Below, in pieces: positions 9,594 to 62,770 of a stretch of 64,000 nucleotides of DNA. The stretch covers positions 24,786 to 88,785 of the forward strand of contig JACPHP010000009.1 of assembly GCA_016188605.1 (NCBI GenBank), given 5' to 3'. Origin of the DNA: Candidatus Spechtbacteria bacterium. GTDB lineage: Bacteria; Patescibacteriota; Minisyncoccia; Spechtbacterales; JACPHP01. The position numbers and the translations under genes are program-made. The notes under the pieces were generated by a model. It saw only the letters and a list, made by a program, of their open reading frames with translations. It had not been told where the DNA came from and ran no database searches. The stretch's first letter is position 1. Each line of letters opens with the position of its first letter.

Positions 9594-9796
9594 AGTGTGT
9601 GTAAAAAATTTTCAATTTTCAATGATCAATTTTCAATCAATGACCTAATGTCCTAATTTTCTCCGCCTGAGGCGGATCAGCCTATGGCTGAAAACACACG
9701 ATTAGAAATTGAAACATTGAAAATTTATTGCGTAGAGCAACGTGGTTGCCACGCAACTCTACGTTGTAAATTGAAAATTGATCATTGAAAATTCAG
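9594..9796. repeat. Palindromic intergenic element, 'ttttcaa' heptamer family, with a central double GC hairpin
   Basis: The left arm has degenerate 7-mer tandems (ttttcaa ttttcaa tgatcaa ttttcaa tcaatga). The centre at 9661-9695 holds ccgcc-tga-ggcgg plus tcagcc-tat-ggctga, and a nested hairpin cgtagag...gttgc-cac-gcaac...ctctacg. The right arm is the inverted array (attgaaaattgatcattgaaaatt). It belongs to the same family as 62630-62770. Confidence 0.6.
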
Positions 9797-10375
9797 TTAT
9801 CGTCCCCCTAAAATCTTCAGCGCCGCTTTAATTTTCTCTTCGGGCGTCACAGGGCCTTCGGGAAGCGCTCGCAAAACTTTTTGCGCATCGCCTCTGGAAT
9901 AGCCAAGAGTGGCTAGCGCCTCCAGCACATCAGTTTCTTCTTTAATATTTCCTGGTAACGTGCCCCACTCTTCGCCGTACTTATCTTTTAATTCCAACAC
10001 CACTTTTTGCGCGATTTTATTGCCAATGCCAGACACACGCGTCAGCATCGTAGTATCACCCGAAGCAATGGCGCGTTGAAGCGTATCAACCGGCGCGGCA
10101 TTCAAAATCCCCATCGCGCCCTTCGGCCCGATACCCGAAACTGTCAGCAAAATTCTAAACATCTGCTCGTCCGCCTTAGTCGGAAAGCCGTAAAGCTCCA
10201 TCACTGTTTCGCGAATATAGTGAAAGGTATAAAGAGTTTTGTCTTGGCCTATTTCGCGCGCAAATTGCGGAATATCGCGCGGCACGCAAAAAATCCGATA
10301 GCCAACACCCTGCACGTCACAAAGCACGGCGTTGTCCTCTACTTCTAGTATTTTACCTCGTAGGAATCCTATCAT
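9797..10375 (-). CDS. ruvA: Holliday junction branch migration protein RuvA
   Basis: MIGFLRGKI..., HhH motifs GIGPKGAMGILN and VSGIGNKIAQKVVLELKDK, 192 aa. Confidence 0.9.
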   Translation of the reverse strand: MIGFLRGKILEVEDNAVLCDVQGVGYRIFCVPRDIPQFAREIGQDKTLYTFHYIRETVMELYGFPTKADEQMFRILLTVSGIGPKGAMGILNAAPVDTLQRAIASGDTTMLTRVSGIGNKIAQKVVLELKDKYGEEWGTLPGNIKEETDVLEALATLGYSRGDAQKVLRALPEGPVTPEEKIKAALKILGGR

Positions 10376-10393
10376 AAGCCAATTATGGCACTA

Positions 10394-10423
10394 TTTACCC
10401 TAACCCTCAAGTTATGCTATAAT
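10394..10423 (+). promoter_or_regulatory. Candidate sigma70-type promoter for uvrB with an extended -10 (TGcTATAAT)
   Basis: tgctataat at 10415-10423. Weak -35 tttacc at 10394-10399 with an 18-bp spacer. It lies about 150 bp upstream of uvrB, with the hairpin repeat in the leader. Confidence 0.35.
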
Positions 10424-10469
10424 AGTGTGCTTTGGAAAGTAACAATGAATATGCGTACGTAAGTAAGAG

Positions 10470-10540
10470 TGTCATCTAGAACGCCCTGCCGTTGCGGGGC
10501 GGAGAGATCTCTCGTCGTTGCTACGACTTCGAGATGACAA
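10470..10540. repeat. Copy 2 of the 39-nt-core hairpin element, in the uvrB 5' leader
   Basis: gagagatctctcgtcgttgctacgacttcgagatgacaa at 10502-10540. It is preceded by the GC mini-hairpin ccctgccgttgcgggg and the flank gtcatctaga. Confidence 0.6.
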
Positions 10541-13969: not shown

Positions 13970-14032
13970 TGCAATACTAGCACGAAAATCGCTTGAGGAT
14001 TAGGACTTACGCTTTTGCCTGTCATCTTTAAT

Positions 14033-14094
14033 GTAGAAATACATTCTCTTGTATTTCTTGTTAAACGTAGAAATACATTCTCTTGTATTTCTTG
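14033..14094. repeat. Two tandem copies of the 28-bp hairpin unit gtagaaatacattctcttgtatttcttg, separated by ttaaac
   Basis: Units at 14033-14060 and 14067-14094. Each is agaaataca-ttctct-tgtatttct. The same unit (ctg variant) is embedded in the composite elements at 24936-24966 and 28896-28925. Confidence 0.7.
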
Positions 14095-14112
14095 TCGAGG
14101 AGTAGAAACTCC

Positions 14113-14151
14113 GAGAGATCTCTCGTCGTTGTTACGACTTCGAGATGACAA
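14113..14151. repeat. Copy 3 of the 39-nt-core hairpin element
   Basis: gagagatctctcgtcgttgttacgacttcgagatgacaa, preceded by the mini-hairpin ggag-tagaaa-ctcc. Confidence 0.6.
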
Positions 14152-14249
14152 ACTATCTATATCCAAATGCATTCAAACGCGCAAATCCTAAGAATAAAAA
14201 ATTTGCTTGTGTTTTCCTTGTTTATTCTACTGTTGATTATTTTTAGAAA

Positions 14250-14475
14250 CATTGTGTATACACGCCATATCTTATTGTATACAAAAATACACAGTTTGTA
14301 ATGAAAAATAATCAGACATAGGGCGGGGTGTTGTTTTTGCTTTATTTAAGCCAAAATACAAACTGTGTATAACTTTTGTGAGCAAACATTTTCGTGTATT
14401 TTAAGATTGCAGTTGTTTCTTTTTATACACATTGGTATAATAAAAGATGTCCCCATTGTTATACACAGGTCTTTA
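14250..14475. promoter_or_regulatory. AT-rich regulatory region with at least five TGTATACA-like palindromic motifs and a -10-like TATAAT, upstream of the XRE regulator
   Basis: tgtgtatacac (14253-14263), ttgtatacaaaaatacacagtttgta (about 14275-14300), tacaaactgtgtataac (14356-14374), ttatacacattggtataat (14422-14440) and ttatacacag (about 14460). The 14287-14301 and 14356-14370 segments are reverse complements of each other. Confidence 0.45.
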
Positions 14476-14491
14476 GAATAAACTTACTGCA

Positions 14492-14570
14492 GTGGGTTAG
14501 ACGAATAATTACTATTTCTCTGTGGCCCAGACCCCCGCCCAGCCACCACAAAGAAATAGTAATTATTCGG
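14492..14570. other. Long hairpin (24-bp stem, 1 mismatch; C-rich 17-nt loop) 20 bp upstream of the XRE regulator start
   Basis: cgaataattactatttctctgtgg ... ccacaaagaaatagtaattattcg. No downstream U-tract, so this is not a classical terminator. Confidence 0.5.
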
Positions 14571-14590
14571 CTCTTCATTGATGCAATACT

Positions 14591-19860: not shown

Positions 19861-20092
19861 AGCGAATATCTCAAAACGCAAATCTTAAATCGCAAAACTA
19901 CAACTCAAATCTAAAAACTACAAGAGGCTTATGGCGAAGATTTTAGATTTAAGATTTAGTAAAAGATTTTCCGCCCGAGGCGGATCAGCCTCTGGCTGAG
20001 AGTTTTACGATTTAGATTTAAGATTTGCCATTTGAGATTTGAGATAAATAATCGAATGTGAGACAATAATCTATTACACATCTAGCAACCCT
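19861..20092. repeat. Palindromic intergenic element, 'tctcaaa' heptamer family, with a short GC double hairpin at its centre
   Basis: Left arm of degenerate 7-mers (tctcaaa acgcaaa tcttaaa tcgcaaa actacaa ctcaaat...). Centre at 19955-19996: agtaaaagattttccgcccgaggcggatcagcctctggctgagag. The right arm is the inverted array (agatttaagatttgccatttgagatttgaga). Confidence 0.6.
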
Positions 20093-20660: not shown

Positions 20661-22382
20661 TTGCAATTGGCTAAAATGCATAATTTAGGTACGATACAAA
20701 ATATGGAATCTCCGTTTGTAATACCAAAAGAACAACAACGCGAACAAGAGCATGAAATAACCTCTTTACGCGCCAAGGAAGAGGAAGAATTTGCAAAAAA
20801 ACTTGCGGAAGATTTGAATCTGCCTTATATCAATCTTTCTTTTGTCCCCATTCAGCAGGAAGCGGTACAAATTATTCCTAAAGACGAAGCGCGAGAAGCT
20901 GAAATTGCTATCATCCAAAAAACCGGACGTGTAATTCAGATAGTCGCTCGAGACCCGCGCAATAAAAACGCGAAAAATATTATTGACTCACTAAAAAACC
21001 AATATATTCGCGTTACTATATTTGTTGTCTCCGAAACAAGTCTTAAAAAGGCGTGGGGGCAATATCCAAAATCAACAGGGAAAACAAAGATTACCGGCGA
21101 AGTAAGCATCTCCCCCAATGCGGTCAAAAGCCTGCGAGAATCAATTCATTCCTGGGATGATTTGCGCCAAAACCTCTCAACGCTTTCCGAAGAGCGGGTA
21201 TCTAGTGTTCTTGAGATGATTCTTGCTGGGGCGCTTAACTTACGAGCGTCGGATGTGCATATTGAGACACAAGATAAAGATCGCTCCGTCCTACGCTTGC
21301 GCATCGATGGAATCCTTCACAATATCACGGAGATATCCCCTCACGCCCAACGACTATTGCTTTCTCGTGTTAAATTATTATCTGGCATGAAATTAAATAT
21401 CAAGAACACATCGCAGGATGGACGCTTTTCTCTAGCGTCTGGTGAGGATCAAATAGAAATTAGATCTTCCGCGCTTCCCGGAGAATATGGAGAAAATATA
21501 GTCTTGAGAGTACTAGATCCGGCTTCACTAAAATCTGTGGCTGATTTAGGCTTCCGCCAAAATTTATTTGAACTTATAGATTCTCAAATCCACCAGCCAA
21601 ACGGCATGATACTTGTAACAGGCCCGACGGGATCAGGAAAAACTACCACGCTATATGCTTTTTTAAAAACACTAGCTACTCCTGAGGTAAAAATCATTAC
21701 GCTTGAAGATCCCGTAGAATACCATTTGGAAGGAATTACTCAGACACAGGTTGACCCAAAACACAATTATACGTTTGCTAGCGGTCTGCGTTCCATACTG
21801 CGCCAAGATCCGGATATTATTCTTGTTGGAGAAATTCGTGACGACGAGACGGCCGATACTGCAATTCACGCCTCGCTTACAGGCCACCTTGTTTTTTCAA
21901 CACTGCACACAAACGATGCTGCTGGCGCTATTCCCCGCCTTATGTCGCTTGGCGGAGACCCCGCCGTTTTAGGATCTGCGCTTCATATGATTATCGCTCA
22001 ACGATTAGTACGCGTGCTTTGCGCGGCTTGCAAAAAATCATATACGCCGACTAAAGAGGAGATGGCATATATTCAAGACGTTATCAATTCGCTTCCTATA
22101 CAATTTCCCAAGCCGGTTTTCTCGGTAACAGATTCGCTGTATATACCGGTAGGTTGTGAGGAATGTACGGCAACTGGTTATCGCGGAAGAATTGGTGTTT
22201 TTGAAATTTTGCCGATGACACCAGAACTTGAACAACTAATTCAAAAACATCCTACAATCGCACAAATTAAAGATTTAGCTTATTCTATTGGCGTTACAAC
22301 TATGGAACAAGATGGAGTGCTTAATGTGATTGCCGGTAATACAACTATTGAAGAAGTTAAGAGAGTTATGGGAGAGGAATAG
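20661..22382 (+). CDS. Type II secretion / type IV pilus assembly ATPase (GspE/PilB family)
   Basis: Walker A VTGPTGSGKTTTLYA, GEIRD, His box, and a C-terminal tetracysteine motif (CAACKK...GCEECTATGYRGRIGVFEIL). 573 aa. Confidence 0.85.
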   Translation: MQLAKMHNLGTIQNMESPFVIPKEQQREQEHEITSLRAKEEEEFAKKLAEDLNLPYINLSFVPIQQEAVQIIPKDEAREAEIAIIQKTGRVIQIVARDPRNKNAKNIIDSLKNQYIRVTIFVVSETSLKKAWGQYPKSTGKTKITGEVSISPNAVKSLRESIHSWDDLRQNLSTLSEERVSSVLEMILAGALNLRASDVHIETQDKDRSVLRLRIDGILHNITEISPHAQRLLLSRVKLLSGMKLNIKNTSQDGRFSLASGEDQIEIRSSALPGEYGENIVLRVLDPASLKSVADLGFRQNLFELIDSQIHQPNGMILVTGPTGSGKTTTLYAFLKTLATPEVKIITLEDPVEYHLEGITQTQVDPKHNYTFASGLRSILRQDPDIILVGEIRDDETADTAIHASLTGHLVFSTLHTNDAAGAIPRLMSLGGDPAVLGSALHMIIAQRLVRVLCAACKKSYTPTKEEMAYIQDVINSLPIQFPKPVFSVTDSLYIPVGCEECTATGYRGRIGVFEILPMTPELEQLIQKHPTIAQIKDLAYSIGVTTMEQDGVLNVIAGNTTIEEVKRVMGEE

Positions 22383-22888
22383 ATATATAGAGAGCACCCT
22401 CCTTCGCTCTGATAAGATCAGGGCTTCGAAAGGGTTGTTTTAATAAGTCCACAACCATGGACTTATTAAAACAAAAACCCCTCGACAAGCTCGGGGCAAG
22501 ACATCCACAAAGATGTAGGCAACTCCTGGCATGGGAACCGAGGATTTAGGATTTTTCCGAGGAACGCCTCAGTCGGAACCAAAACGCCCGGTGTCTAAGA
22601 AAAATCCCGTGTCTATCATAGGACAGACGTGTTGCCCACATCCTTATGGATGTATCGATACATGTTAGCAAATTAAGAACTATTTGTCAAGGAAGACGGA
22701 ATAACATATCATTATCTCAAAAATCAAATCGCAAATTGCAAATCTAAATCTCAAATCTTCAGCCCGAGGCTGATCCCCGCCAAAGGCGGGCAGGCGTCTC
22801 TGGCGGAAAAATACCGTAGTTTGTAGTTTCAAGATTTGAGTTGTAATTTTGAGTTTTGCGATTTCAGATTTGAGATTTAAATTTTACT
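22383..22888. other. Non-coding region of about 500 bp with several perfect hairpins; candidate structured ncRNA or leader that I could not identify
   Basis: No ORF of 60 aa or more. Hairpins tttaataagtcca-caacca-tggacttattaaa (about 22440-22475), acatcc-ttat-ggatgt and palindrome atgtatcgatacat (about 22650-22680). Mixed GC composition, unlike the AT-rich heptamer elements. The heptamer palindromic element occupies 22690-22888. Confidence 0.3.
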
Positions 22889-35123: not shown

Positions 35124-35258
35124 ATGTCGGTTACATACCAAAAAAAGACCAAAAAAAGAAATCGCAAGCATGGTTTTATGGAAAGGAGTTCAACTCCCAG
35201 TGGAAGAAGGGTTTTAGCTAGGAGAAGGACTAAGCAAAGAAAGAATTTATCAGTATAA
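35124..35258 (+). CDS. rpmH: 50S ribosomal protein L34
   Basis: [44 protein letters not shown] (44 aa) is L34-like. The ORF track extended it to an upstream ATG at 35070. Confidence 0.85.
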
Positions 35259-35259
35259 T

Positions 35260-48639: not shown

Positions 48640-48815
48640 GAGTTATATTCAAATTAACCTCATCTAACAGTTTAGGTGTTTTTTGGTTAGTAAAATAGTA
48701 TCTCAGATCTCAAATCGTAAATCTCAAAACTGAAATTTAAATCTCAAAACTACACGTGAAGATTTTAGATTTGAGTTGTAGATTTGAGATTTAAGATTTG
48801 AGTTTTGAGATAACT
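48640..48815. repeat. Palindromic intergenic element, 'tctcaaa' heptamer family, separating the two VirB4 halves
   Basis: Left arm tctcagatctcaaatcgtaaatctcaaaactgaaatttaaatctcaaaactac. Centre cacgtg. The right arm is inverted (agattttagatttgagttgtagatttgagatttaagatttgagttttgaga). Confidence 0.6.
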
Positions 48816-49481
48816 TTATTCTGGTGCGGTATAACTTTCTTCAAGAGGTTTCATCATAGCGCGTTTTTTAAGGCCTTGTGGGTTATATAGATTCCAGAAA
48901 AGGACAATCAGCTCTTCTGTTTCAAGTTGTTTGGTAAGTAAGCCCATGCGATGAAGACCAGCCGCGACAAAATCTAGGCGTTGTTCAAGCTGTGTGCGGT
49001 AATGAGCAAATTGTTGTTCCTTTAATTCTTCGCCCCCGCCGCCAATACCGAACATTCCCAGCAATCCCTTCCCTCCCCCGCTGGTTATAGCACCTTGCTC
49101 AAAAGGGTTTAGAGGAGCTACGACAAAAAAATCAGTGGAGACAATATTTGTGGTTTCAACAAATTCTTTTATAAACTTGCGATACTCTTGTGTCTGTATG
49201 CGTAAAAGGTCGTTATTTTGACGGGATTCAAGATCGGCAAGCGTGGCGATATATTCATCAATATTTAAGAATCGCGAATTGATGAATATCTGTATGTCAA
49301 AATCAAGTGAATTCAGAAAGCTTTGAAACGCGAAGATAATCGCGTCTTGCTCTTCCTGCGATTTTAACGCGAAGTTGATGCTGGACACGCGAAGCACGCC
49401 GCGCATTCCCCCGCCCTTGAGGATGAGGACGCCATCGCGGATTGCGTCAATACGGACAAAGTTTTGAGTGGAGAAAGCCAT
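48816..49481 (-). CDS. VirB4 N-terminal-domain-like protein (CagE_TrbE_VirB-type); candidate first half of the split VirB4
   Basis: MAFSTQNFVRIDAIRDGVLILKGGGMRGVLRVSSINFALKSQEEQDAIIFAFQSFLNSLDFDIQIFINSRFLNIDEY follows the VirB4 N-domain pattern as I recall it. 221 + 605 aa gives 826 aa, a typical Gram-positive VirB4 length. Confidence 0.5.
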   Translation of the reverse strand: MAFSTQNFVRIDAIRDGVLILKGGGMRGVLRVSSINFALKSQEEQDAIIFAFQSFLNSLDFDIQIFINSRFLNIDEYIATLADLESRQNNDLLRIQTQEYRKFIKEFVETTNIVSTDFFVVAPLNPFEQGAITSGGGKGLLGMFGIGGGGEELKEQQFAHYRTQLEQRLDFVAAGLHRMGLLTKQLETEELIVLFWNLYNPQGLKKRAMMKPLEESYTAPE

Positions 49482-49602
49482 AACAATTTAAATTACAAAG
49501 TCCAAATTACAAATGTCAAAGTAATGTCAAAGTTTAAAGTTTTGACATTTGGCATTTAGTCATTTGAAATTGATTTGTAATTTGACATTTGGATTTTGAA
49601 AT
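49482..49602. repeat. Palindromic intergenic element, 'tttgacattt' word family
   Basis: aaattacaaagtccaaattacaaatgtcaaagtaatgtcaaagtttaaag | ttttgacatttggcatttagtcatttgaaattgatttgtaatttgacatttgg. The arms are inverted repeats of each other. Confidence 0.6.
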
Positions 49603-50004
49603 TTATTTTTTGTCTATCCTCTGTGCCAACTGTTGTATCTGTTCTCGAGTAACCGAAGCACCCGGCCGAGCAAACTGACCCACCTCTTTTTTGATCTTAG
49701 TCGGTGTTTCCGCTTGTTTTTGCGGCGCTCTAGTCCATACGTATACGCGCGGCGAGACAGTAAAGGTAAGGAAATTCATGAAAAAATCAGCAAAGGGTTT
49801 CTCGTTTACGCGTACAAAAGCAAGCACAAGAGTCACGATTGAAATAATTATCGCGACAGGGAAGAAAAGAAAAGACTCTAGTATAAAATATAGGCCGACA
49901 ATAACCGCGCCCGCCCCGACAACCGTTAGTGTTTGGGGCAAGGTGAGCGATGCGAGAATTTTCTCCTCAAGATCAATGAATTTTGGGACTTGGAATTGCT
50001 GCAT
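49603..50004 (-). CDS. VirB3-like small two-TM membrane protein (PrgI/TcpE-like position upstream of VirB4)
   Basis: 133 aa with two adjacent TM helices (TLTVVGAGAVIVGLYFILESFLFFPVAIIISIVTLVLAFVRV). It directly precedes the VirB4 N-domain gene. Assignment by topology and position only. Confidence 0.4.
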   Translation of the reverse strand: MQQFQVPKFIDLEEKILASLTLPQTLTVVGAGAVIVGLYFILESFLFFPVAIIISIVTLVLAFVRVNEKPFADFFMNFLTFTVSPRVYVWTRAPQKQAETPTKIKKEVGQFARPGASVTREQIQQLAQRIDKK

Positions 50005-52894: not shown

Positions 52895-53785
52895 TTACAG
52901 TGGATATCTATTGACGAGAGTTTTCCACTCGTTAAGCGATAATGTTTCGGGACGGCGAGTTTGTTCAATATCGTTTTGAGCAAGCCATATCGTTATTTTT
53001 TCTTTTGGCAGGCCGAGCCCTTGCGATAAGGTTTTTTGTAGCTGTTGGCGCGGGTGTGCAAACCCAGCTTTGGCGATTTTGAAGAACAACGGAATATCTT
53101 TTTCTGCTATGACTGGGCTAGGATAGACATCCACAACTAATAATGCGGAATCAACTGTAGGTTGCGGCCAAAAAGCGCCCTTGGAAACTATGCGTACAAT
53201 AGTAGGGTTGCCATATAATTGCACGGAAAGAGCCAAAAGATTCATCCCGTTAGAGGTAGAGCGGCGCTGTGAGCCCTCGCGACCTCTAACGGGATTCATG
53301 TCTGGGGTCTTTGCGCAAATCTTCTGCGCTACTTCTTTTTGGATAATAACAGCGATTCGACTTGGGCGAATCGGCTCTTCATCAAGGAATTTACGGAATA
53401 GACGGGCTGTTAAATAATAAGGAGGCGTTCCGACGAGTTTGTAGTCCTGTATTCTGTATTCCGTATTCTGTATTCTCAGTGCGTCGCCCTCGATAATTTC
53501 TATATTCTTATAGTTTGCCGTTTGCTCGCGCAGAATAGGAATTAATGCGCGATCTTTTTCAATTGTCACGACGCGGCCAACGTATTTTGCTATTTCTGTC
53601 GTAACCGTGCCTAGTCCGCCGCCTATCTCAAGCACTGTATCGTTTTTATCTAGCTGTGCCGCGGCGATTAGAGCGTTAAGAATATCTTGATTAACCAAAA
53701 AATTCTGCCCAAGCCGCTTGTTTGGCATTAAAATATCATGTTGCAGGTAGATTTCTTTGATTTCAGAGGGCGTTAGCATAAGCAA
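52895..53785 (-). CDS. rsmA: 16S rRNA (adenine1518/1519-N6)-dimethyltransferase KsgA/RsmA
   Basis: GQNFLVNQDILNALIAAA, SAM motif VLEIGGGLGTVT. Contains an in-frame heptamer array (53446-53479) encoding RIQNTEYRIQDYK. Confidence 0.85.
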   Translation of the reverse strand: MLMLTPSEIKEIYLQHDILMPNKRLGQNFLVNQDILNALIAAAQLDKNDTVLEIGGGLGTVTTEIAKYVGRVVTIEKDRALIPILREQTANYKNIEIIEGDALRIQNTEYRIQDYKLVGTPPYYLTARLFRKFLDEEPIRPSRIAVIIQKEVAQKICAKTPDMNPVRGREGSQRRSTSNGMNLLALSVQLYGNPTIVRIVSKGAFWPQPTVDSALLVVDVYPSPVIAEKDIPLFFKIAKAGFAHPRQQLQKTLSQGLGLPKEKITIWLAQNDIEQTRRPETLSLNEWKTLVNRYPL

Positions 53786-53870
53786 TCAACGAATAACGAA
53801 TCCTGTGCGAATATACGAATACTCCACTGTAGTCAATTCGTTTATTCGTAACGGATTCGTTATTCGTTGA
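53786..53870. repeat. MITE-like palindromic element with 18-bp terminal inverted repeats tcaacgaataacgaatcc / ggattcgttattcgttga
   Basis: It lies exactly between the uvrD-like stop (53883) and the ksgA start (53785). A second copy with the same termini is at 60933-61015. The interior is made of cgaata/tattcg heptamer-like words. Confidence 0.65.
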
Positions 53871-53882
53871 TGATTAAGATTG

Positions 53883-56022: not shown

Positions 56023-57366
56023 GTGAAAGACTTAAAGCCACAAACTCCTTTAGGCGTACATATGGGCGCAAGAGGATTTTCAAGGCCTATTCGCAAAACC
56101 ATACAACATTCTGTGTCCGCGGACGCCCCTAGGGGAGCAGCAGTAAGCGCGCTACAAAGCGTGCAAGCTGTTACCACCAAGGGGATCGCATCGCGGGTAG
56201 AGAACTACATAACCATTCCACATAAAGAGTTGCCACGTTTTTTCCCAAACACTCTTAAAGGAATGATTCTTACCACAGCGCATCGTTTTTTGCGCTTTGT
56301 TGCGTATAATGCGGCGTGGTCAGGAATTGGCGCCATTGTGCTTGTTGTGGGTGTTGGTAACGTCATACAGCCGCAGTTTCCAGTAGATTTTGGATTTATT
56401 CGTGATGTTGGTCAAGAAAATTTTGTTCAAGAGGTAGAAGCCATGCCCAAGATGACCGTGGTAACACCCATACTTACGCCAAGTTTGTTTTTTGTGAGCG
56501 GATATAATTCCGTGCCCGGCGCAGATATAGAGGCTTCTATATACAGGGGCGTAGGCGGACCAGCGGATAATGAAATATTTATTTCAATAGAAGATGCCAC
56601 GGTGGTTGCCTCCTCTTCTCCGCTTACCATTGCAGCATCGGCAAATCAACGTAAGAAAATTGAAAAATACATTGTGCAAGATGGCGATACGCCCTCTAGT
56701 ATTGCGGCAGCTTTCGGTATTACCACAAATACGCTTCTATGGGCAAATAGTTTAAGGGATGGCGATTATATTCGCCAAGGGCAGGAACTTAGTATATTGC
56801 CTGTGTCGGGCGTAAGCTACCAAGTGAAGAGTGGTGATACTCTTTTATCTATATCAAAGCAATTTAATGGTAACGCAAGCGCAGTTATTGCGTATAATAA
56901 ACTTGCCTCAAGTGGCGACTTGAGCGCTGGTGAAACTATTATTATTCCCGATGGAGAGATGCCTAAACGTCAATATGCTTTGGCGTCTTCGCGAGTATAT
57001 ACTTATGGAGGGCAAGATTTGGGCGGTTACTTTTTAAAGCCAGCCGCGGGCTATATTAGTCAAGGGCTTCATCCTAATAATGCCGTTGATATCGCAAATG
57101 CTTGCTGGACTCCTGTTTATGCTGCTGCAGAGGGTACGGTTGTTATTGCTGATTCTTACGGATGGAATGGTGGATATGGGCAATATGTTCGCATTCGTCA
57201 TCCCAACGGAGTTGAAACAGTTTATTCTCATGCTATTAAGTTAGTAGTATCAGCCGGTCAAAAAGTTACGCGCGGGCAACTTATTGAATATATGGGTGAA
57301 ACGGGTCGCGCCACGGGATGCCATGTGCACTGGGAAGTTTATGGAGCAAAAAACCCCTTAAGATAA
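56023..57366 (+). CDS. LysM-domain M23-family (LytM-like) peptidoglycan endopeptidase
   Basis: Two LysM repeats (YIVQDGDTPSSIAAAFGITTNTLLWAN and YQVKSGDTLLSISKQF). M23 motifs HPNNAVDIA, GGYGQYVRIRHPNGVETVYSHA and GETGRATGCHVHWEV. N-terminal TM segment. Confidence 0.8.
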   Translation: MKDLKPQTPLGVHMGARGFSRPIRKTIQHSVSADAPRGAAVSALQSVQAVTTKGIASRVENYITIPHKELPRFFPNTLKGMILTTAHRFLRFVAYNAAWSGIGAIVLVVGVGNVIQPQFPVDFGFIRDVGQENFVQEVEAMPKMTVVTPILTPSLFFVSGYNSVPGADIEASIYRGVGGPADNEIFISIEDATVVASSSPLTIAASANQRKKIEKYIVQDGDTPSSIAAAFGITTNTLLWANSLRDGDYIRQGQELSILPVSGVSYQVKSGDTLLSISKQFNGNASAVIAYNKLASSGDLSAGETIIIPDGEMPKRQYALASSRVYTYGGQDLGGYFLKPAAGYISQGLHPNNAVDIANACWTPVYAAAEGTVVIADSYGWNGGYGQYVRIRHPNGVETVYSHAIKLVVSAGQKVTRGQLIEYMGETGRATGCHVHWEVYGAKNPLR

Positions 57367-57598
57367 GAGGTTTTTGCTCCATAAACTTGGCCGCAAAAGC
57401 GGCCGGGGTAGTTGTGGTGACCTCAGTTTTTTGCCCGAGACGACTTCATATGCTTATGAAGTCGGTGAGAAATATTTGGCGTCGCCACAACGGTACCTTG
57501 GTGTTAATATTTTATGGAGCAAAAAACCCCTTAAGATAGAACAGAATACAGAATACAGAATACAGAATACAGAATACAGAATACAGAATACCAACTGT
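57339..57598. repeat. Composite repeat region. A 27-bp direct repeat (57339-57365 / 57512-57538) duplicates the 3' end of the M23 gene. Internal hairpins, then a (acagaat)x7 heptamer array at 57541-57589.
   Basis: DR ttatggagcaaaaaaccccttaagata occurs twice, 173 bp apart. The first copy is followed by its own inverted copy (ggtttttgctccataaa), forming a hairpin. Further hairpins ggccgc-aaaa-gcggcc and cgacttcata-tgct-tatgaagtcg. The heptamer array matches the one inside ksgA. Confidence 0.7.
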
Positions 57599-59128
57599 TT
57601 AGTAGGTTTCTGCTTCTTTCCTAATATACCCCAATGCCTCTGTAAGATGCGGCACGAGTATTGCTTCTGACGCGGCAAGGTCTGCGATCGTTCGCGCAAC
57701 TTTGAGTAAATTGTGATATCCGCGGGCGGAAAGGCCAAAAGAGTTTACCGCGCGTTCAACAATGTGCTCAGAATCACCACTAAGAACGCAGTATTTTTTA
57801 ATCAAAGGCAGAGTCATTTCGCTGTTTGTTTTTGTTGCGAGTCCTGTAAAGCGCTTGTTTTGTATGTTGCGTGCTTGATTTACTCGAGTCTGTACAATAA
57901 TAGTGGATTCACCAAGTATAGTTGAGGATAGGACCTCATATGTTTGCGAAGGAACCCAGACGTGAATATCTATGCGGTCGGCAATCGGCCCAGAAAGTTT
58001 TCGTTGATACATCATAATTTGCGACGGACTGCACACGCAAGGGTGTTTGTCATCATTGCGATAGCCGCAGGGGCAAGGGTTTGCCGCCGCAACAAGCGTA
58101 AAGGAAGCGGGATAGTGTATAGTGCCCTTGCTTCGCGCCACTGTTATTTTGCGCGATTCAAGCGGTTGACGGAGACTTTCTAACACATCGCGATGAAATT
58201 CAGGGAATTCATCAAGAAACAAGACGCCGCGATGGGCCATGGTGATTTCGCCAGGTAAAAGATTGGACCCGCCGCCAAGCAAAGCCACCTCAGAAGAAGA
58301 ATGATGTGGCGAGCGGAACGGGCGATCGTAAACAAGCGGGGAATCGGGATTTAATTCTCCTTTTATGCTTGTAATTTGAGTAACTTCAAGCTGCTCCTCT
58401 CGTGACATTGCGGGCAAAATACCTGCCATGGCGCGTGCAAGAAGAGTTTTGCCGGAACCAGGGGGACCTTGCATTAATACGTTATGGCTACCAGCTGCCG
58501 CGATTTCTATAGCGCGTTTTGCTTGATGCTGGCCTTGAATCTGACCGATGTCGGGCAATGATTGCTGATACGATTGTTTGGGCGCGATGTTTTGTGGCGG
58601 CGTGAAATGCTCGTTATGCTCCAGCAGGCGTATACATTCATTGAGATTTGAGGGAGCTTCAACAACCATGTTCCCGACAAGCGATGCCTCGGCGGCGTTT
58701 TCGCGCGGAACAATAAGCCGCGCGATTTTCTTTTGTCTAGCGCAGAGGGCCATAGACAACGCGCCGCGTACAGGGCGTAATGTGCCGTCTAGACCAAGCT
58801 CGCCCATTATTAATGTGTTTGCATCAATAGGTTTTATTTGTTTAGACGACACAAGAAATCCTAAAGCCATTGGTAAATCAAAATGTGTCCCCTGTTTCTT
58901 TATATCAGCAGGCGCAAGGTTGATAATAGTGCGTTTATTAAAACTGCGAGGCGGTTTAAACTTACTGTTTTTTAAGGCGGAAGACATTCGTTCTTTTGCT
59001 TCTTCTACCGCTTTATCGGCGAGGCCAACGATATGAAAAGCATGGAGGCCGACGTGAACGTCGACCTCCGTATGAATAAGACGGGAATGAAGCCCATCAA
59101 TGGTTGCGGATAGAATAGTTGCGGGCAT
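57599..59128 (-). CDS. comM: YifB/ComM-family Mg-chelatase-like AAA+ ATPase
   Basis: N-terminal MPATILSATIDGLHSRLIHTEVDV..., Walker A GPPGSGKTLLA, 509 aa. Confidence 0.85.
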   Translation of the reverse strand: MPATILSATIDGLHSRLIHTEVDVHVGLHAFHIVGLADKAVEEAKERMSSALKNSKFKPPRSFNKRTIINLAPADIKKQGTHFDLPMALGFLVSSKQIKPIDANTLIMGELGLDGTLRPVRGALSMALCARQKKIARLIVPRENAAEASLVGNMVVEAPSNLNECIRLLEHNEHFTPPQNIAPKQSYQQSLPDIGQIQGQHQAKRAIEIAAAGSHNVLMQGPPGSGKTLLARAMAGILPAMSREEQLEVTQITSIKGELNPDSPLVYDRPFRSPHHSSSEVALLGGGSNLLPGEITMAHRGVLFLDEFPEFHRDVLESLRQPLESRKITVARSKGTIHYPASFTLVAAANPCPCGYRNDDKHPCVCSPSQIMMYQRKLSGPIADRIDIHVWVPSQTYEVLSSTILGESTIIVQTRVNQARNIQNKRFTGLATKTNSEMTLPLIKKYCVLSGDSEHIVERAVNSFGLSARGYHNLLKVARTIADLAASEAILVPHLTEALGYIRKEAETY

Positions 59129-59950: not shown

Positions 59951-60922
59951 TCATTGGTTGGAGTAAAAGTGCTCTTCTAGTAATTTACTGCGAGAAAAAG
60001 GGTAATGAAAAAGCAGGGTATTGTCGTCAATAATCATTTGTACCGGCTCCAGTTGTTTTTCATTGACACTGTGAACTATTCGCATCCTTTGGAAGTATCG
60101 CGCGCTTTGTTCAAGCATTACTCCAATTCCGCATGAGTTCATTATAAATTCAATAGTCAATTTTATTGCAAGTAATAAACGAGCTGGCTTAAATCCAAGC
60201 GCCGCGATTTTAGAGTTGTTGATTAGGGGCATATATTGAAGCATCCATTCATTTGTCTCGCCAATTTTTTTGAAATTATCTTGACCCCAATATGGCATTG
60301 CGGCTGCATAAATATGGGCAGTAGAAAGTATTTGGGGGTTGAGATGCGCGCTAGCTTTAGAAATATTGTTGCTATCTATGCTTATATAGTGGTTAAGGCA
60401 TATTTGGTCACAAATAAGGGTTTTGTGTCGGTATTTGCCAAGCAGCCATGTAAACATTCCCACAAGAAATCTTGTGAGCCAAACACGACCCGGAGCGCTT
60501 GCGATAAGAACATCAATATCGCTATCAGCCGTTGCGCTATCACGCACAACAGAGCCGGTTAACGTAACCACGCGCACGTAAGGAATATACGGATAGAAAC
60601 GCGCAATTTGTTGAAATACACGTCGTTTCTCAACGCTTATTTTTCTCGAGCGTATTCTTTGCCAGTAAGAATTTTTTGGAGATTCGATTAAAAAGAAATA
60701 ACCGTTTGATTCTATAATTTTTTTTTGCGCGATAAGTCCGTCGAGAGTTTTAAAGATTTCTTGCAGCGAAATTCTGTGTTTGTCCTGTTGATTTTTGTCT
60801 TGTGGCGCCCAAGTCAAATAACGCATCAGCTCAAGCGGAGTCAGCGCGTATAAATGAAGCGGCTTGTAGTATGTAAAAGTCGCAAGCAACGCTCTTTCGA
60901 GGTTAATTCTATCCATAACCAA
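59951..60922 (-). CDS. Nucleotidyltransferase-fold protein (pol-beta superfamily)
   Basis: NTase signature LTGSVVRDSATADSDIDVLI (GS...DxD). 323 aa. Specific family not recognised. Confidence 0.45.
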   Translation of the reverse strand: MVMDRINLERALLATFTYYKPLHLYALTPLELMRYLTWAPQDKNQQDKHRISLQEIFKTLDGLIAQKKIIESNGYFFLIESPKNSYWQRIRSRKISVEKRRVFQQIARFYPYIPYVRVVTLTGSVVRDSATADSDIDVLIASAPGRVWLTRFLVGMFTWLLGKYRHKTLICDQICLNHYISIDSNNISKASAHLNPQILSTAHIYAAAMPYWGQDNFKKIGETNEWMLQYMPLINNSKIAALGFKPARLLLAIKLTIEFIMNSCGIGVMLEQSARYFQRMRIVHSVNEKQLEPVQMIIDDNTLLFHYPFSRSKLLEEHFYSNQ

Positions 60923-60932
60923 CTAATAATCA

Positions 60933-61015
60933 TCAACGAATAACGAATCCACTACAAATAAACGAATTAACTGGTCGAGTATTCGTAAATTCGTACACGA
61001 TTCGTTATTCGTTGA
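60933..61015. repeat. Second copy of the MITE-like element with tcaacgaataacgaatcc / cgattcgttattcgttga termini
   Basis: It lies exactly between the stop of the 537-aa gene (61016) and the start of the NTase gene (60922). The interior resembles an inverted version of the interior of the 53786-53870 copy. Confidence 0.65.
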
Positions 61016-62629
61016 TTATTTACCCACCAACTGGTCAAGCGCAAAATACGCGGAGTTTTTAGATGTGGCAATGAGCAGATAATCGTTAACTAGCGCGTAA
61101 TTTAACCCCGTGGGGGAAATGGGCATATTGTTGTAGCGAACAATAATTCCAGCAGGATAGCTAATAGAAAAACCAGTGTAATTTGCTGTTTTCCAGCCCG
61201 TTGTTTGATCAAAAAGCGGAGAACCTAGAATAATAGGCATAAATAGCTGAACCAGGTTTTGTTCTTGATCGGAAATTGTATTTTGTACGGCAGTTTCGTG
61301 CGCGGGTAAAATCTTGAATATAATGCCAAGGCGCGACGAATAGCAGGAGATGTCAAAATTATTTATTTCCGTACATTTATTCTTTTCTTCCTCGCCAGGC
61401 GTATATATATAAAGCATGGGCGCGGGATCAAGAGAGTCTATAAGCGTTTGCGGGAGCTGGACATTGAGCAAGCTAAGAAGCTCTTTTGTTTGCAAGTAAG
61501 AATTATCTGTTAATTTTTTAATTGGCAAATAGGTTATTGTTTTAGGCGAGTTGATTGAATGTTCTAATGCGCGTAATTGTTCTACCAAAAACGACTCATT
61601 TCCTTTTTGTAATTCAATAATTTGTTGTGGTGTTTGGAAGAATGGACTGGGTGTTGCGGGTGCAACGGGGGTGGACGGAGCGCTCGGCGCGGCAGGCGCG
61701 GAGGGTTGCAAATAGACTCTCCAGTAAACAAATCCTCCGATTCCGCTGCCAACAATTAGTATACCGAGTAAAATTGCTACAAACTGCAAGATATTCGCGC
61801 GTCTTTTAGGAATTTCTTCGTATAATTGAGCTTCTGTTTGCGGAAATTTTCTTGTCGGCGACAATGGGGGAGCAGTAATCGGTCTTTGCGGCATTGTCAA
61901 TTGTGGCGACTGAGGCAGTGGTTTTTCTTGTAAGCGCATTGGCGTTGAAGACAATCCTAAAATTTCTTCAGGTGTTTTTAGCCCCCCCTCTTTACTAGGA
62001 ATAATTTGTCTTATCGGTCTTGTTTCTTTTTCTATACTAGGTAGGTTGGGCGGCGGAGCGGCAGTGAGGGGTTGTGGGCGAAGTGGGGGCGGAGGTAGCG
62101 CGGACGGGGGTGTTGGCGTAACAATAGGCCTTGTCGCTGTGGGTAAGGGCAAGGGTTTTTCTGCCGCAACTGAAACCGTTGGAGGTATTGCGCGTTCTTT
62201 TAAGATTTGTTCAAGCTCCTCTTCTTCTACAGGAATAAAATTTTTAGGAAGCTGAGTGGAAGGTGTTGCTGGTTTTGTCGGTGCCTGTGGACGCAAAGCA
62301 AGCTCGCCCAATTTAGGTTCACCTAGTTTTGGTTCATCTAGTTTTGGTGCGGGCTGATGCGTGTTTTGAGTTGGCTTGACTGGTATGGGTGGCGCGGGCA
62401 TAAAAGGCCTCTGTGGCGCAGGTCGTATTGGCACAGAAGGTTTTGCTGGTGATATTTGTGAAATCGGAGCAGATGGTTTTTTGAGTTGTTCCAACACACC
62501 TTCTTTTTTGTAGGGCTCTATGCCAGTAGGCAGGGGTTGTTTGAGCTGCCCTTGTTGTTTGCGTCGTGAGTCCTCAATGTCTTGAGACATTGTATGGATT
62601 CTACCGAGTGAAGACACGCTAGTGGGCAT
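61016..62629 (-). CDS. Proline-rich single-pass membrane protein with a C-terminal globular domain (hypothetical)
   Basis: About 270 aa Pro-rich, with repeats DEPKLGEPKLGEL, then TM segment ILQFVAILLGILIVGSGIGGFVYW, then a domain of about 230 aa. No motif recognised. Confidence 0.4.
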   Translation of the reverse strand: MPTSVSSLGRIHTMSQDIEDSRRKQQGQLKQPLPTGIEPYKKEGVLEQLKKPSAPISQISPAKPSVPIRPAPQRPFMPAPPIPVKPTQNTHQPAPKLDEPKLGEPKLGELALRPQAPTKPATPSTQLPKNFIPVEEEELEQILKERAIPPTVSVAAEKPLPLPTATRPIVTPTPPSALPPPPLRPQPLTAAPPPNLPSIEKETRPIRQIIPSKEGGLKTPEEILGLSSTPMRLQEKPLPQSPQLTMPQRPITAPPLSPTRKFPQTEAQLYEEIPKRRANILQFVAILLGILIVGSGIGGFVYWRVYLQPSAPAAPSAPSTPVAPATPSPFFQTPQQIIELQKGNESFLVEQLRALEHSINSPKTITYLPIKKLTDNSYLQTKELLSLLNVQLPQTLIDSLDPAPMLYIYTPGEEEKNKCTEINNFDISCYSSRLGIIFKILPAHETAVQNTISDQEQNLVQLFMPIILGSPLFDQTTGWKTANYTGFSISYPAGIIVRYNNMPISPTGLNYALVNDYLLIATSKNSAYFALDQLVGK

Positions 62630-62770
62630 AGTCTAAAATTTCCAATGATCAATTTACAATTTTCAATGAATTAACAAACTCAATTTTAATACGTATTGCG
62701 TATTTGGAAATTAGGTCATTTAGTCATTGATTGTGAATTGAAAATTGGTGCTTGAAAATTAGTTTTGTTT
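62630..62770. repeat. Palindromic intergenic element, 'ttttcaa' heptamer family (same family as 9594-9796)
   Basis: aaatttccaatgatcaatttacaattttcaatgaattaac ... tagtcattgattgtgaattgaaaattggtgcttgaaaattag, with centre acgtattgcgtat. Confidence 0.6.

Follow-up and report, generated by a model that had tools for sequence, protein, structure and literature searches.

The 64,000-nucleotide stretch analyzed here (the window) includes dnaA/oriC and comes from a Patescibacteria/Parcubacteria MAG, Candidatus Spechtbacteria, an uncultured member of the candidate phyla radiation with a small genome, not from a cyanobacterium. Tandem Repeats Finder assigned 791 bases of the window to 22 period-7 rows, and a fixed criterion (self-match of ≥75% over 28 nt, the same for every period) yielded 10 period-7 arrays totaling 437 bases. 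The same stringent criterion produced zero arrays at periods 4 to 6 and 8 to 12 in the window and zero arrays in dinucleotide shuffles of it, and period 7 is the sole enriched tandem period in the window. An earlier note had described intergenic palindromes built from degenerate heptanucleotide arrays in almost every intergenic region. The elements are real, as confirmed by the period-7 enrichment, inverted-repeat arms, and folding z-scores, but "almost every" was too strong: the plan was present in 12 of 19 gaps of ≥90 nt, and no gap in the origin-proximal 30 to 46 kb had it. The occupied sites (A to L) lie at convergent, divergent, and co-directional junctions and also inside an operon, as had been claimed. 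Between most co-directional neighbors (A, D, G, H, I, K, and L), the gap is filled by the element, which begins approximately 0 to 11 nt past the stop codon of the upstream gene.

RNA folding of each locus against 100 dinucleotide shuffles gave z-scores of −2.5 to −10.5 on both strands at 11 of the 12 loci. The word family ATCTCAA/TTGAGAT recurs at six loci, B to G. Element B (positions 19867 to 20046; z, −7 to −9), between the divergent TsaE gene and a 187-amino-acid gene, has outer arms of these words, inner arms at 19897 to 19919 and 19938 to 19960, and a GC core at 19971 to 19999. Element C (22714 to 22876), upstream of RuvB, has 46-nt arms (78%) and carries the GC module in the opposite orientation (22760 to 22806), with a 19-nt nested insert (22776 to 22794). 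The arms of element D (24788 to 25008; z, −7), between YebC and RuvC, are degenerate members of the family and enclose a composite center, consisting of the GC module (24864 to 24902, with the 19-nt insert at 24876 to 24894) and a 70-nt two-hairpin insert (24903 to 24972). Element E (28856 to 29094; z, −8), between divergent TyrRS and PBP1 genes, contains this composite center inverted (28891 to 28999). Element F (46678 to 46797; z, −8 to −9) lies within a type IV secretion-like operon, between a VirB4-like gene and a 120-amino-acid gene, and has 54-nt arms (78% complementary) around a 12-nt center. Element G (48699 to 48812), between TraC-like and VirB4-like genes, starts 3 nt past the upstream stop codon and consists of 57-nt arms (81% complementary) with no spacer.

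The remaining loci use other words. Element A (9607 to 9793; z, −10) is situated between RuvA (stop) and FemAB (start), with arms of AATTTTC/TTGAAAA words at 9607 to 9636 and 9764 to 9793, a 24-nt inverted repeat at 100%, and a center comprising a GC mini-hairpin core (9663 to 9691) and a further hairpin. Its word family is shared by element L (62644 to 62760; CAATTTT/TTGAAAA; z, −4 to −5), downstream of PNPase. Elements I (53785 to 53871; between the stop of UvrD and the start of KsgA; z, −10) and K (60928 to 61020; z, −7 to −8) form an AACGAAT/ATTCGTT family, with arms of 36 nt (89% complementary) and 40 nt (83%), respectively, and common ATCAACGAATAACGAATCC ends. Element H (49480 to 49611), between the PrgI and TraC-like genes, has AAATTAC/AAATGTC and TTTGACA words and the weakest hairpin (z, −2.5 to −2.8). 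Locus J (57541 to 57591) is a perfect ACAGAAT array of 7.3 units with no inverted partner (z, about −1 to −2); it adjoins a separate nested palindrome not built of heptamers (57362 to 57540; z, −9.35).

An inverted-repeat search recovered arms spanning exactly the coordinates given for A, B, C, F, G, I, K, and L, and those of H at 49480 to 49581. The proposed plan of array, center, and reverse-complement array held as long but imperfect hairpins at 11 of the 12 loci, J being a tandem array only, and a GC hairpin at the center was present at A to E (5 of 12) and not at the others. The grouping of loci by words (A/L, B to G, and I/K) was borne out by the sequence, and arm complementarity lay far above that of shuffled controls. 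This complementarity operates at the level of the word family and is not unit specific: noncognate and cognate arms pair equally well, which leaves selection on individual stems unsupported, and registers offset by 7 nt pair nearly as well. When both strands were folded, the transcribed strand had no consistent energy advantage and hence no G-U signature of selection at the RNA level.

Ends are conserved within families, and nonrepetitive ends and internal motifs are common to different loci, such as GATTTRCCATTTGAGATTTGAGATAA in B, E, and F. Positions 24851 to 24982 of D match a segment of E exactly over 132 nt, in reverse-complement orientation. Hairpin tips collect nested smaller GC hairpin modules, and the GC module is nested stepwise at fixed positions across two word families. 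Logan contigs, assembled independently from several runs and 100% identical to the window, fully span C, F, G, K, and L and terminate within A, B, D, H, I, and J (at 57562 in J).

Heptamer arrays, absent from the earlier description in this setting, were also found within coding genes. The MurE-type ligase gene (minus strand) contains in-frame arrays at 7499 to 7540 (TTCGAAA words) and 7702 to 7790 (ACCGCTG and GTTGTCT words; feature, 7499 to 7790). The second coincides with an insert of ~28 amino acids (~84 nt) in the linker between conserved domains, where residues 296 to 332 align to 10 residues of the PDB homologue 8w9z_N. In KsgA (minus strand), an in-frame array of four CTGTATT units (ACAGAAT word; 53441 to 53483) encodes IQNTEYRIQDY in a length-variable loop, which in the related genome L007 holds other heptamers and a GC hairpin. 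A 54-nt in-frame insertion in the same gene (minus strand, 53239 to 53299) comprises a 47-nt palindrome (CCGTTAGAGGT...ACCTCTAACGG) and a second copy of ATGAATC (a 7-nt direct repeat), and a relative with 88% identity lacks it. Both heptamer arrays and one unrelated palindrome occupy permissive protein loops in frame.

The plan recurs well beyond the window. Across 1.3 Mb from 80 related Parcubacteria loci (given L numbers here), 38 period-7 arrays were found in 19 loci, with ≤12 for every other period, and their words are genome specific and arranged as inverted pairs. At orthologous junctions, the presence, absence, or replacement of an element does not depend on the genes on either side; in keeping with the suggestion that sister genomes be compared, junctions were empty or held an element with different words or a different palindrome. 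The TraC-like/VirB4 junction, occupied by G in the window, holds in L005 an element with a PF05635 gene and AATTTCT arms, and in L006, L008, and L010 has a gap of only 0 to 47 nt by tblastn alignment ends. By the same measure, the L005 junctions corresponding to sites F (VirB4/120-amino-acid gene, ~28 nt) and I (UvrD/KsgA, ~7 nt) are short; in L007, UvrD and KsgA are separated by a different palindrome, which has terminal repeats of 26 nt. The position orthologous to site H is occupied in L050 by a PF05635-bearing element.

PF05635 (family name, "23S rRNA intervening sequence protein") is a four-helix bundle related to bAvd. A tblastn search of the 80 loci identified 13 PF05635-type genes (Pfam E values of 8e−14 to 2e−40 for the 4 representatives checked), and inverted heptamer arrays flank at least 11 of them. 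In an independent metagenome set, 55 of 78 PF05635 genes had inverted flanks above the 95th percentile of noncognate controls, and a flank array of period 7 or 8 was present in 61 of 78 loci versus 31 of 1,192 control segments, with the same period on both sides in all 19 loci where both flanks were called. Stems of the class are built of tandem 7-nt words, or 8-nt words in some other genomes, and the period stays within 7 to 8 nt across hundreds of words. Within the L050 and L031 genomes, ORF-less and ORF-bearing elements use common words, and the AATTTCT word that makes up the PF05635 arms in L005 reappears in that genome as direct arrays inside UvrD. The L005-type protein has >4,000 relatives, the best 120 of which are ~70 to 80% identical; the maximum for VirB4 of the host is 74%. 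No gene for PF05635, a transposase, a reverse transcriptase, or RNase III was found in the 64-kb window and extensions of ~7 kb, and the link to the window elements therefore rests on architecture, orthologous positions, and word sharing in other genomes.

Three possibilities had been put forward for the elements: RNA-level stems, nucleoid-protein or regulator binding arrays, and a self-propagating repeat class. The last is favored by the shared ends and motifs, the D/E identity, the contig breaks, the turnover at junctions, and the PF05635 arm architecture, with RNA stems as the likely level of action; protein-binding arrays are disfavored. The window elements would be ORF-less members of a dispersed class of palindromic insertions, intervening-sequence-like and with arms of the kind that surround PF05635 genes elsewhere (probability, roughly 55%). 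The placement of B and E between divergent genes, at sites with no expected read-through transcription, counts against an intervening-sequence reading. The heptamer elements have no clear target-site duplication at their flanks, and none of the mechanisms tested explains the 7- or 8-nt unit length.

A possible but rather improbable alternative is local generation, with neither mobility nor function: short words in AT-rich spacers would be expanded by replication slippage that favors 7 nt, and the inverted partner would be copied from the array through intramolecular template switching (quasipalindrome correction). The persistence of word-level complementarity under 7-nt register shifts and the existence of partnerless arrays (locus J and the coding arrays) fit such a process, as do the 7- and 14-nt indels in Nostoc stems (PMC4476775) and the finding, summarized in PMC4679880, that among longer simple repeats in many bacteria the heptanucleotide class is the most abundant, for which polymerase slippage is held responsible. 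It does not readily accommodate the nonrepetitive sequences shared between loci, the D/E identity, one word family at six loci, or the close association of the arms with a single gene family in unrelated genomes. Slippage has probably molded the arrays, yet it leaves their dispersal unexplained.

It is unlikely that the elements are punctuation of benefit to the host, acting as bidirectional terminators, mRNA 3′-end stabilizers, or operon-processing sites, as proposed for REP/BIME and Correia elements. The positions just after stop codons, the strong hairpins, and an orientation-independent palindromy would suit this role, but the stems are AT rich and have neither a GC clamp nor a U-tract. 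A scan of 44 to 63 kb called 25 terminator-like sites (21.6 ± 4.4 in shuffles), and none of F to L was among them. Elements F, G, and H lie inside an operon that requires read-through, the siting of B and E between divergent genes is also unfavorable, relatives function with gaps of 0 to 50 nt at the orthologous junctions (tblastn alignment ends), and related arrays occur within coding sequence.

Slightly less plausible still are cis-acting binding arrays, in which a putative nucleic-acid-binding protein (a pentameric PF05635 protein, a cold-shock-type OB-fold protein, or a nucleoid protein) would read one 7- to 8-nt word per subunit. The restricted period is compatible with this, as is the reported binding of Bacillus subtilis CspB to heptamer repeats, one protein per unit (PMC4679880). 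Arms flanking PF05635 genes are ~4 to 5 units long in L005, L031, L041, L050, and L073 (Tandem Repeats Finder), and proteins of the S23p family form homopentamers (PMC4990558). Overlap of the 3′ arm with the ORF end is seen in Kaiserbacteria-type genes. Arm words co-vary with PF05635 protein relatedness, a pattern confounded by host relatedness. Array length, however, ranges from 3 to >10 units, and the window holds at least 4 or 5 unrelated words yet no PF05635 gene. This diversity within one genome, together with quite different words in relatives (GC-rich ones included), is why a regulator or nucleoid array is disfavored. Low-complexity joins made by the MAG assembler, or a binning artifact, would account for the short-read contig breaks in several elements but are extremely improbable, given the identical Logan assemblies from different runs that span five elements and the recurrence of the plan in dozens of independent assemblies.

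Several known systems resemble the elements in part, the nearest being the heptamer hairpins of Nostocales, together with small dispersed repeats, and the intervening sequences of rRNA. In Nostocales, STRRs (short tandemly repeated repetitive sequences) likewise form hairpins in which degenerate 7-nt repeats pair with a complementary array, as in the P6b stem of the tRNA-Leu(UAA) intron (TDNGATT or NNTGAGT repeats), with length steps of 7 or 14 nt and nonrepeat insertions that recur at one position as side stem-loops (PMC4476775). The B to G word T[G/A/T]AGATT fits the Class I motif TDNGATT, compared by motif description only. Unlike the Nostocales repeats, the present elements belong to Patescibacteria, fill most gene junctions, and enter coding loops, and no description of a PF05635 link for Nostoc repeats was found in the literature searched. 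Their small GC-rich nested units resemble the small dispersed repeats reportedly described by Elhai et al. in 2008 (Genome Res 18:1484), a paper that PMC5861425 cites. MITEs, Correia elements, and REP/REPIN sequences are also short, noncoding, palindromic, dispersed, mainly intergenic, assembly breaking, and nestable; for the heptamer elements, by contrast, neither a partner gene (transposase or RAYT) within the window nor a clear target-site duplication was found, the arms consist of internally repetitive word arrays, not unique terminal repeats, and the stems are AT rich, whereas those of REP are GC rich. Rickettsia palindromic elements (Ogata et al. 2000, Science) are said to lie in frame at permissive surface sites of proteins, and the KsgA insert (54 nt) and, as tandem arrays, that of MurE (~84 nt) are similar, although lineage and sequences are unrelated, the inserts in coding genes are shorter here, and most copies lie between genes. 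TAACTGA direct repeats of Beggiatoaceae and some cyanobacteria are also intergenic heptamer arrays, concentrated beside start codons, but they use one fixed word and are inverted in 1 of 170 sets (PMC4679880), whereas here many words occur and the inverted pair is the rule.

In rRNA intervening sequences, terminal inverted repeats make up a stem of ~28 bp that RNase III cleaves, and the loop holds an S23p ORF in some of them (PMC4990558); among the rRNA inserts of the candidate phyla radiation are 23S_rRNA_IVP ORFs and short inserts of the intervening-sequence type located at the tips of helices (PMC11270868). Shared with the present class are the long stem, the optional PF05635 ORF, the short ORF-less versions, a sporadic distribution suggesting horizontal spread, and a preference for existing helix tips (PMC4990558, PMC11270868). 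Unlike the 23S/16S rRNA forms, the elements here occupy the spaces between protein-coding genes and in some cases sit inside such genes, and stems of tandem 7-nt words are not reported for classical intervening sequences.

The evidence as a whole points to a selfish intervening-sequence-like element rather than a regulatory array. Such elements would behave like rRNA intervening sequences transferred into mRNA space: they would be transcribed along with host genes, and the long stem formed by their paired arms would be tolerated because the flanking cistrons stay functional through RNase III-type processing or plain read-through. Words whose length is not divisible by three would, if they contain a stop triplet, also close all three reading frames, and 7-nt slippage may grow and shrink the arrays while the arms stay complementary at the word level in any register. 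With RNase III processing and the mobility mechanism both putative, the elements would spread or turn over as selfish DNA.

Tandem Repeats Finder reported 22 rows of period-7 tandem arrays, covering 791 bases of the window. Under a uniform criterion (self-match of ≥75% across 28 nt), period 7 gave 10 arrays comprising 437 bases; periods 4 to 6 and 8 to 12 gave none, and none were found in dinucleotide-preserving shuffles. The inverted arms described in an earlier note were recovered by an inverted-repeat search in intergenic elements A (9607 to 9793), B (19867 to 20046), C (22714 to 22876), D (24788 to 25008), E (28856 to 29094), F (46678 to 46797), G (48699 to 48812), H (49480 to 49611), I (53785 to 53871), K (60928 to 61020), and L (62644 to 62760), with arm lengths of 24 to 57 nt and complementarity of 72 to 100%. 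The best arms were those of element G (57 nt, 81%, without a spacer) and element I (36 nt, 89%). Folded as single strands, 11 of the 12 loci were more stable than 100 dinucleotide shuffles by 2.5 to 10.5 standard deviations on both strands. The word families proposed earlier were also borne out: ATCTCAA/TTGAGAT in B to G, AATTTTC/TTGAAAA in A and L, AACGAAT/ATTCGTT in I and K, and AAATTAC/TTTGACA in H. Locus J (57541 to 57591), counted as a palindrome in that note, is instead a perfect tandem array of ACAGAAT (7.3 copies) without an inverted arm. A central GC hairpin, described as frequent, was present in 5 of the 12 loci and absent from the rest. The palindromic plan, said to occupy almost every gap, was found in 12 of the 19 gaps of ≥90 nt on a crude ORF map and not in the others; the listed gaps of that size in the 30 to 46 kb around the replication origin held no heptamer palindrome. 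An assembly artifact was excluded: Logan assemblies of several sequencing runs were 100% identical to the window and fully spanned C, F, G, K, and L, and every Logan contig carrying window proteins was likewise 100% identical. The pattern is real, statistically robust, and unusual in a reduced genome.

The genomes nearest to the window were Parcubacteria-group Patescibacteria, mostly Candidatus Spechtbacteria/Spechtbacterales, and an NCBI protein identical to its KsgA (294 amino acids) carries the label Candidatus Spechtbacteria. A cyanobacterial (Nostoc-type) origin was rejected on the strength of these relatives, the gene content, and the dnaA/dnaN-rpmH origin region. The replication origin region (31981 to 37137) carries dnaN and dnaA on the minus strand opposite rpmH-rnpA-yidD-yidC-jag on the plus strand, at the cumulative GC skew minimum (near 33 kb), with DnaA-box-like TTATCCACA variants at 33121 to 33342 and 34714 to 35259. 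Further genes encode RuvABC, UvrB, UvrD, PolA, MurE, FemAB, PBP1, TyrRS, KsgA, and PNPase, along with a type IV secretion-like operon containing PrgI, TraC-like, and VirB4-like genes. The window contained no Rfam match at the gathering score, no rRNA, and no tRNA by ARAGORN. Extensions past its two ends (~6 kb and 1.2 kb) added just a single short TTTTTCA array and a small palindrome.

Ends are shared inside families B to G (TTATCTCAAATCTCAAA...TTTGAGATTTGAGATAA), I/K (ATCAACGAATAACGAATCC), and A/L, and nonrepetitive internal motifs are common to the copies within families. These conserved ends and motifs indicate dispersed copies of a few elements rather than independent local arrays. The GC module in the centers of A to E has grown by nesting at hairpin tips, at fixed positions: A and B have the same GC core (CCGCCYGAGGCG followed by GATCAGCCTnnGGCTGA), although their word families differ; C, D, and E have an additional 19 nt (CCTGCCCGCCTYTGGCGGG); and D and E have, in the second hairpin's loop, another insert of 70 nt with two hairpins. 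Exact identity between D and E extends over 132 nt, in opposite orientation. Within family B to G, arms taken from different copies paired as well as cognate arms (−0.84 versus −0.69 kcal per nt), and a 7-nt register shift lowered ungapped complementarity only from a range of 0.76 to 0.81 to one of 0.62 to 0.74. On both strands the 5′ arm always consists of a G-poor word and the 3′ arm of a C-poor word, a pattern that is not significant because only ~4 families are independent. At most codirectional junctions, the gap is filled by an element that begins within ~0 to 11 nt of the upstream stop codon. As expected of repeats, contigs assembled from short reads terminate within A, B, D, H, I, and J (Logan contigs L085 to L100, ending at 9633/9634, 20019, 24880/24889, 49518, 49576, 53866/53872, and 57562), which makes the elements a practical cause of metagenome-assembled genome fragmentation in candidate phyla radiation bacteria.

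Other repeats and hairpins were observed in the window. A nonheptamer nested palindrome of 179 nt (57362 to 57540; outer arms AAGAGGTTTTTGCTCCATAAA and TTTATGGAGCAAAAAACCCCTT; z = −9.35) adjoins the perfect ACAGAAT array and matched no Rfam family above threshold. The hairpin unit AGAAATACATTCTnTTGTATTTCT occurs in four copies, two in tandem at 14035 to 14092 (gap 13970 to 14590) and one each in the nested inserts of D (24944 to 24967) and E (28896 to 28919), where the sister hairpin AAAATTACATTTTGTTGTAATTTT adjoins it. A separate 38-nt family, GAGAGATCTCTCGTCGTTGnnACGACTTCGAGATGACA, is found on the plus strand at 972 to 1009, 10502 to 10539, and 14113 to 14150, in gaps lacking heptamer palindromes, and a GC hairpin precedes at least the first two copies. 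Between a PilB-type ATPase gene and element C, ~300 nt (22383 to 22700) are GC-richer and contain several hairpins, with no ORF of ≥80 amino acids and no Rfam match; this segment may represent a divergent small RNA or additional elements in decay. E-value-mode Rfam scans of 22350 to 22720 and 57340 to 57620 returned only subthreshold hairpin look-alikes.

The synteny of the secretion operon is conserved across sister genomes; the contents of gene junctions vary (sizes are tblastn alignment ends unless the sequence was read base by base). Between the TraC-like and VirB4 genes, where the window has element G, related contig L005 has a 470-nt element with AATTTCT/AGAAATT arms around a small ORF (sequence read), and L006, L008, and L010 have 0 to 47 nt (alignment ends). 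The PrgI/TraC-like junction holds element H in the window and an ORF-bearing element in L050, and the junction between VirB4 and a 120-amino-acid gene holds element F in the window and ~28 nt in L005 (alignment ends). At the UvrD/KsgA junction, element I of the window corresponds to ~7 nt in L005 (alignment ends) and in L007 to another palindrome, whose terminal repeats are perfect over 26 nt (sequence read). Because orthologous junctions differ in this way, the elements are gained and lost independently of the flanking genes. Period 7 was also dominant in 1.3 Mb of related Parcubacteria, with 38 arrays in 19 of 80 loci and at most 12 arrays for each other period; the words were genome specific, formed inverted pairs, and could even be GC-rich (TAGCTTC in Kaiserbacteria). 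When the window's words were searched across all fetched loci, the single relevant match was in the KsgA gene of L007 (3620 to 3690).

The L007 match consists of AATTTTC-type words and a CCGCCnnnnGGCGG/CCGCCAACTGGCGG hairpin and lies in the same KsgA loop as the ACAGAAT words of the window, so that one loop bears different heptamer arrays in the two genomes. Beyond the intergenic regions covered by the earlier note, heptamer arrays thus sit within coding genes too. In the window, KsgA (minus strand) has a 54-nt in-frame insertion at 53239 to 53299, in which a 47-nt palindrome is joined to a second copy of a 7-nt direct repeat, ATGAATC. The insertion encodes ~18 residues (NPVRGREGSQRRSTSNG plus one repeat-derived residue) and is missing from an 88% identical relative (P0002, on L091) and from all other aligned homologues. 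The MurE-type ligase gene (minus strand) contains in-frame heptamer arrays at 7702 to 7790 and 7499 to 7540, the larger of which coincides with ~28 amino acids that, relative to solved MurE structures, are inserted between two conserved motifs, YAHTPDALE and VLGSAGGGRD. Heptamer arrays were also seen inside UvrD of L005 (2708 to 2746 and 3901 to 3971), one pair flanking a GC hairpin. The coding inserts of the window parallel the Rickettsia palindromic elements. The idea, taken from the KsgA insert, that heptamers are accumulated 7-bp target-site duplications was rejected: target-site duplications, being direct repeats, leave inverted arms unexplained, and the 19-nt GC insert has none.

Elements with the architecture of those in the window were found carrying an ORF of the PF05635 family ("23S rRNA intervening sequence protein," or S23p) in the loop, in L005, L031, L041, L050, and other loci (E values of 8e−14 to 2e−40 for four representative proteins against Pfam). 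Among PF05635-type genes detected by tblastn in related loci, at least 11 of 13 were directly flanked by inverted heptamer arrays. Words are shared as well, in genomes other than the window's own: ORF-less palindromes in L050 and L031 use the words of the ORF-bearing element of the same genome, and the AATTTCT word of the PF05635 arms in L005 recurs as direct arrays around the GC hairpin inside UvrD. An independent set of 80 PF05635 genes from metagenome contigs, 78 with flanks, gave the same association. Upstream and downstream flanks were inverted repeats of each other in 55 of 78 loci (above the 95th percentile of noncognate controls), and a period-7 or period-8 array was present in at least one 120-nt flank in 61 of 78 loci versus 31 of 1,192 control segments (2.6%). 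Both flanks had the same period in 19 of 19 cases, and periods 5, 6, 9, and 10 were essentially absent. Arm-word similarity rose with protein similarity (Spearman coefficient, 0.24), a correlation confounded by host relatedness.

The PF05635 protein of the L005 type had more than 4,000 relatives, none attributable to the window's own genome; the best 120 listed (P0121 to P0240) were ~70 to 80% identical and spread across many Patescibacteria assemblies. The host VirB4 was at most 74% identical to that of any genome found. The greater conservation of the PF05635 protein than of the host housekeeping proteins compared therefore fits horizontal mobility, and these sequence comparisons suggest that the protein may have spread horizontally in recent times. 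In Kaiserbacteria-type PF05635 genes (L031, L041, L044, and L073), the 3′ heptamer arm, of GCTAGAA words, overlaps the ORF end; read at the sequence level, this arm appears to encode the conserved C-terminal ...KLE... residues and to supply the TAG stop, which would physically interlock the arm with the gene. One arm downstream of the PF05635 gene of L140 consists of (CCCTAAA)n-like words. That word is the plant telomere unit, and the likeness is probably coincidental, though it shows how much the word arrays can resemble telomeres. A limited literature search, which leaves novelty unproven, returned neither an account of heptamer palindromes in candidate phyla radiation bacteria nor a described link between PF05635 genes and word arrays.

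With a probability of about 0.55, the window elements belong, as ORF-less members, to a class of intervening-sequence-like, palindromic insertion elements with stems of tandem 7-nt words. Pure local slippage with template switching would account for the word-level pairing, but it leaves the shared ends, the exact 132-nt identity, and the gene association unexplained and is an unlikely origin for the palindromes. As insertion elements, the palindromes would be transcribed with host genes, their stems being processed or tolerated at the RNA level, and would spread selfishly. Their arrays may lengthen and shorten by 7-nt slippage, which would leave the arms pairable in any register. Since 7 is not divisible by three, an array whose word contains a stop triplet blocks every reading frame within 21 nt; such triplets are TGA in TTGAGAT, TTGAAAA, and TTTGACA and TAA in AACGAAT. 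ACAGAAT, the word inside KsgA, has none, and its role as the coding word is suggestive only, since the same word forms the intergenic array of locus J. The insertion element reading has weak points. Folding energies showed no consistent preference for the transcribed strand and no strand-specific G-U signature, two elements lie between divergent genes, and the window contained no PF05635 gene (tblastn with four PF05635 proteins), no reverse transcriptase or RNase III gene, and no transposase domain in the ORFs scanned. No PF05635 gene was found in the ~6-kb and 1.2-kb extensions.

Terminators or processing signals selected by the host are less probable still. Intrinsic (Rho-independent) terminators have a GC-rich stem and a T-run, whereas the window stems are AT-rich and lack a T-tail, and the operon-internal and divergent positions also speak against such signals. 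In the region scanned (44 to 63 kb, containing F to L), none of these elements was among the terminator-like sites, the counts of which equaled the shuffle expectation. Consensus scans of that region, being at shuffle level, gave no support to a promoter or terminator role. Arrays binding a protein, possibly a PF05635 pentamer, would be an attractive if putative refinement, to which we give little credence.

Among known systems, rRNA intervening sequences are selfish elements. Pairing of their terminal inverted repeats gives a stem of ~28 bp, which RNase III cleaves midway; in some members the loop contains an S23p ORF, and Xanthomonas S23p is a homopentamer of four-helix bundles (PMC4990558). 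Neither their origin and spread nor the role of S23p/PF05635 is known (PMC4990558). Such ORFs, and many short inserts of the intervening sequence type at helix tips, occur in candidate phyla radiation rRNA genes (PMC11270868). Excision from the transcript by RNase III, with no religation, is a further trait of rRNA intervening sequences. The window elements likewise have terminal inverted repeats that pair into a long stem (arms of 24 to 57 nt, where ~20 to 30 bp or more is expected of such sequences), but they lie between or inside protein-coding genes rather than in a 23S or 16S helix and lack the loop ORF. The P6b stem of the Nostoc tRNA-Leu intron consists of 7-nt motifs (TDNGATT or NNTGAGT), varies by indels of 7 and 14 nt, and has side stems inserted recurrently (PMC4476775). 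The B-to-G word fits TDNGATT, and the window elements have the stem of degenerate 7-nt units pairing with a complementary array that defines these hairpins (PMC4476775); the GC modules of A to E match the nested, nonheptamer units at recurrent positions in Nostocales hairpins and small dispersed repeats. The likeness drawn here to the Nostocales repeats (named families STRR1 to -3 and SDR1 to -8) is one of architecture, and their host is a cyanobacterium, whereas that of the window is, by gene content and nearest relatives, Patescibacteria/Candidatus Spechtbacteria; convergence or a mechanism shared across very distant phyla is suggested. Like MITEs, the heptamer elements have terminal inverted repeats and occur as numerous similar copies dispersed in families. 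MITEs have a cognate autonomous element whose transposase goes with the same terminal repeats; no transposase domain was found in the window ORFs scanned. MITEs also have a target-site duplication of fixed length; no clear duplication was seen around the heptamer elements, although these start and finish with TA, and a 7-nt direct repeat (ATGAATC) flanks the unrelated KsgA palindrome. REP/REPIN sequences are GC-rich imperfect palindromes of 20 to 40 nt with a conserved tag and a RAYT gene in the genome; only the central mini-hairpins (CCGCCnnnGGCGG and CAGCCnnnGGCTG) resemble them in size and composition, and no RAYT gene was found in the window.

Candidate phyla radiation genomes are regarded as minimal and tightly packed, yet here hairpin repeats fill about two-thirds of the longer gene gaps and reach even the loops of the essential enzymes MurE and KsgA. 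The elements affect assembly and annotation: they are exactly where short-read contigs break, repeats abut gene starts, and insertions lengthen proteins. The hairpin repeats themselves are akin to known kinds; what is unexpected, and testable, is the connection with the PF05635 gene family, whose tight, statistically strong association with inverted 7- to 8-nt arrays supplies a defined cis-element for tests with the protein and RNase III. A broader reading, which we hold only tentatively and consider rather improbable, is that the 7- to 8-nt word arrays may be the cis arms of widespread, unrecognized mobile intervening-sequence-like elements. In autonomous form, these would encode a pentameric PF05635/Avd-like protein that reads about one word per subunit and mediates spread or RNA processing, and the Spechtbacteria palindromes, the classical rRNA intervening sequences, and perhaps the Nostocales hairpins would be one system. 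If true, this would at last give the S23p/PF05635 family a function.
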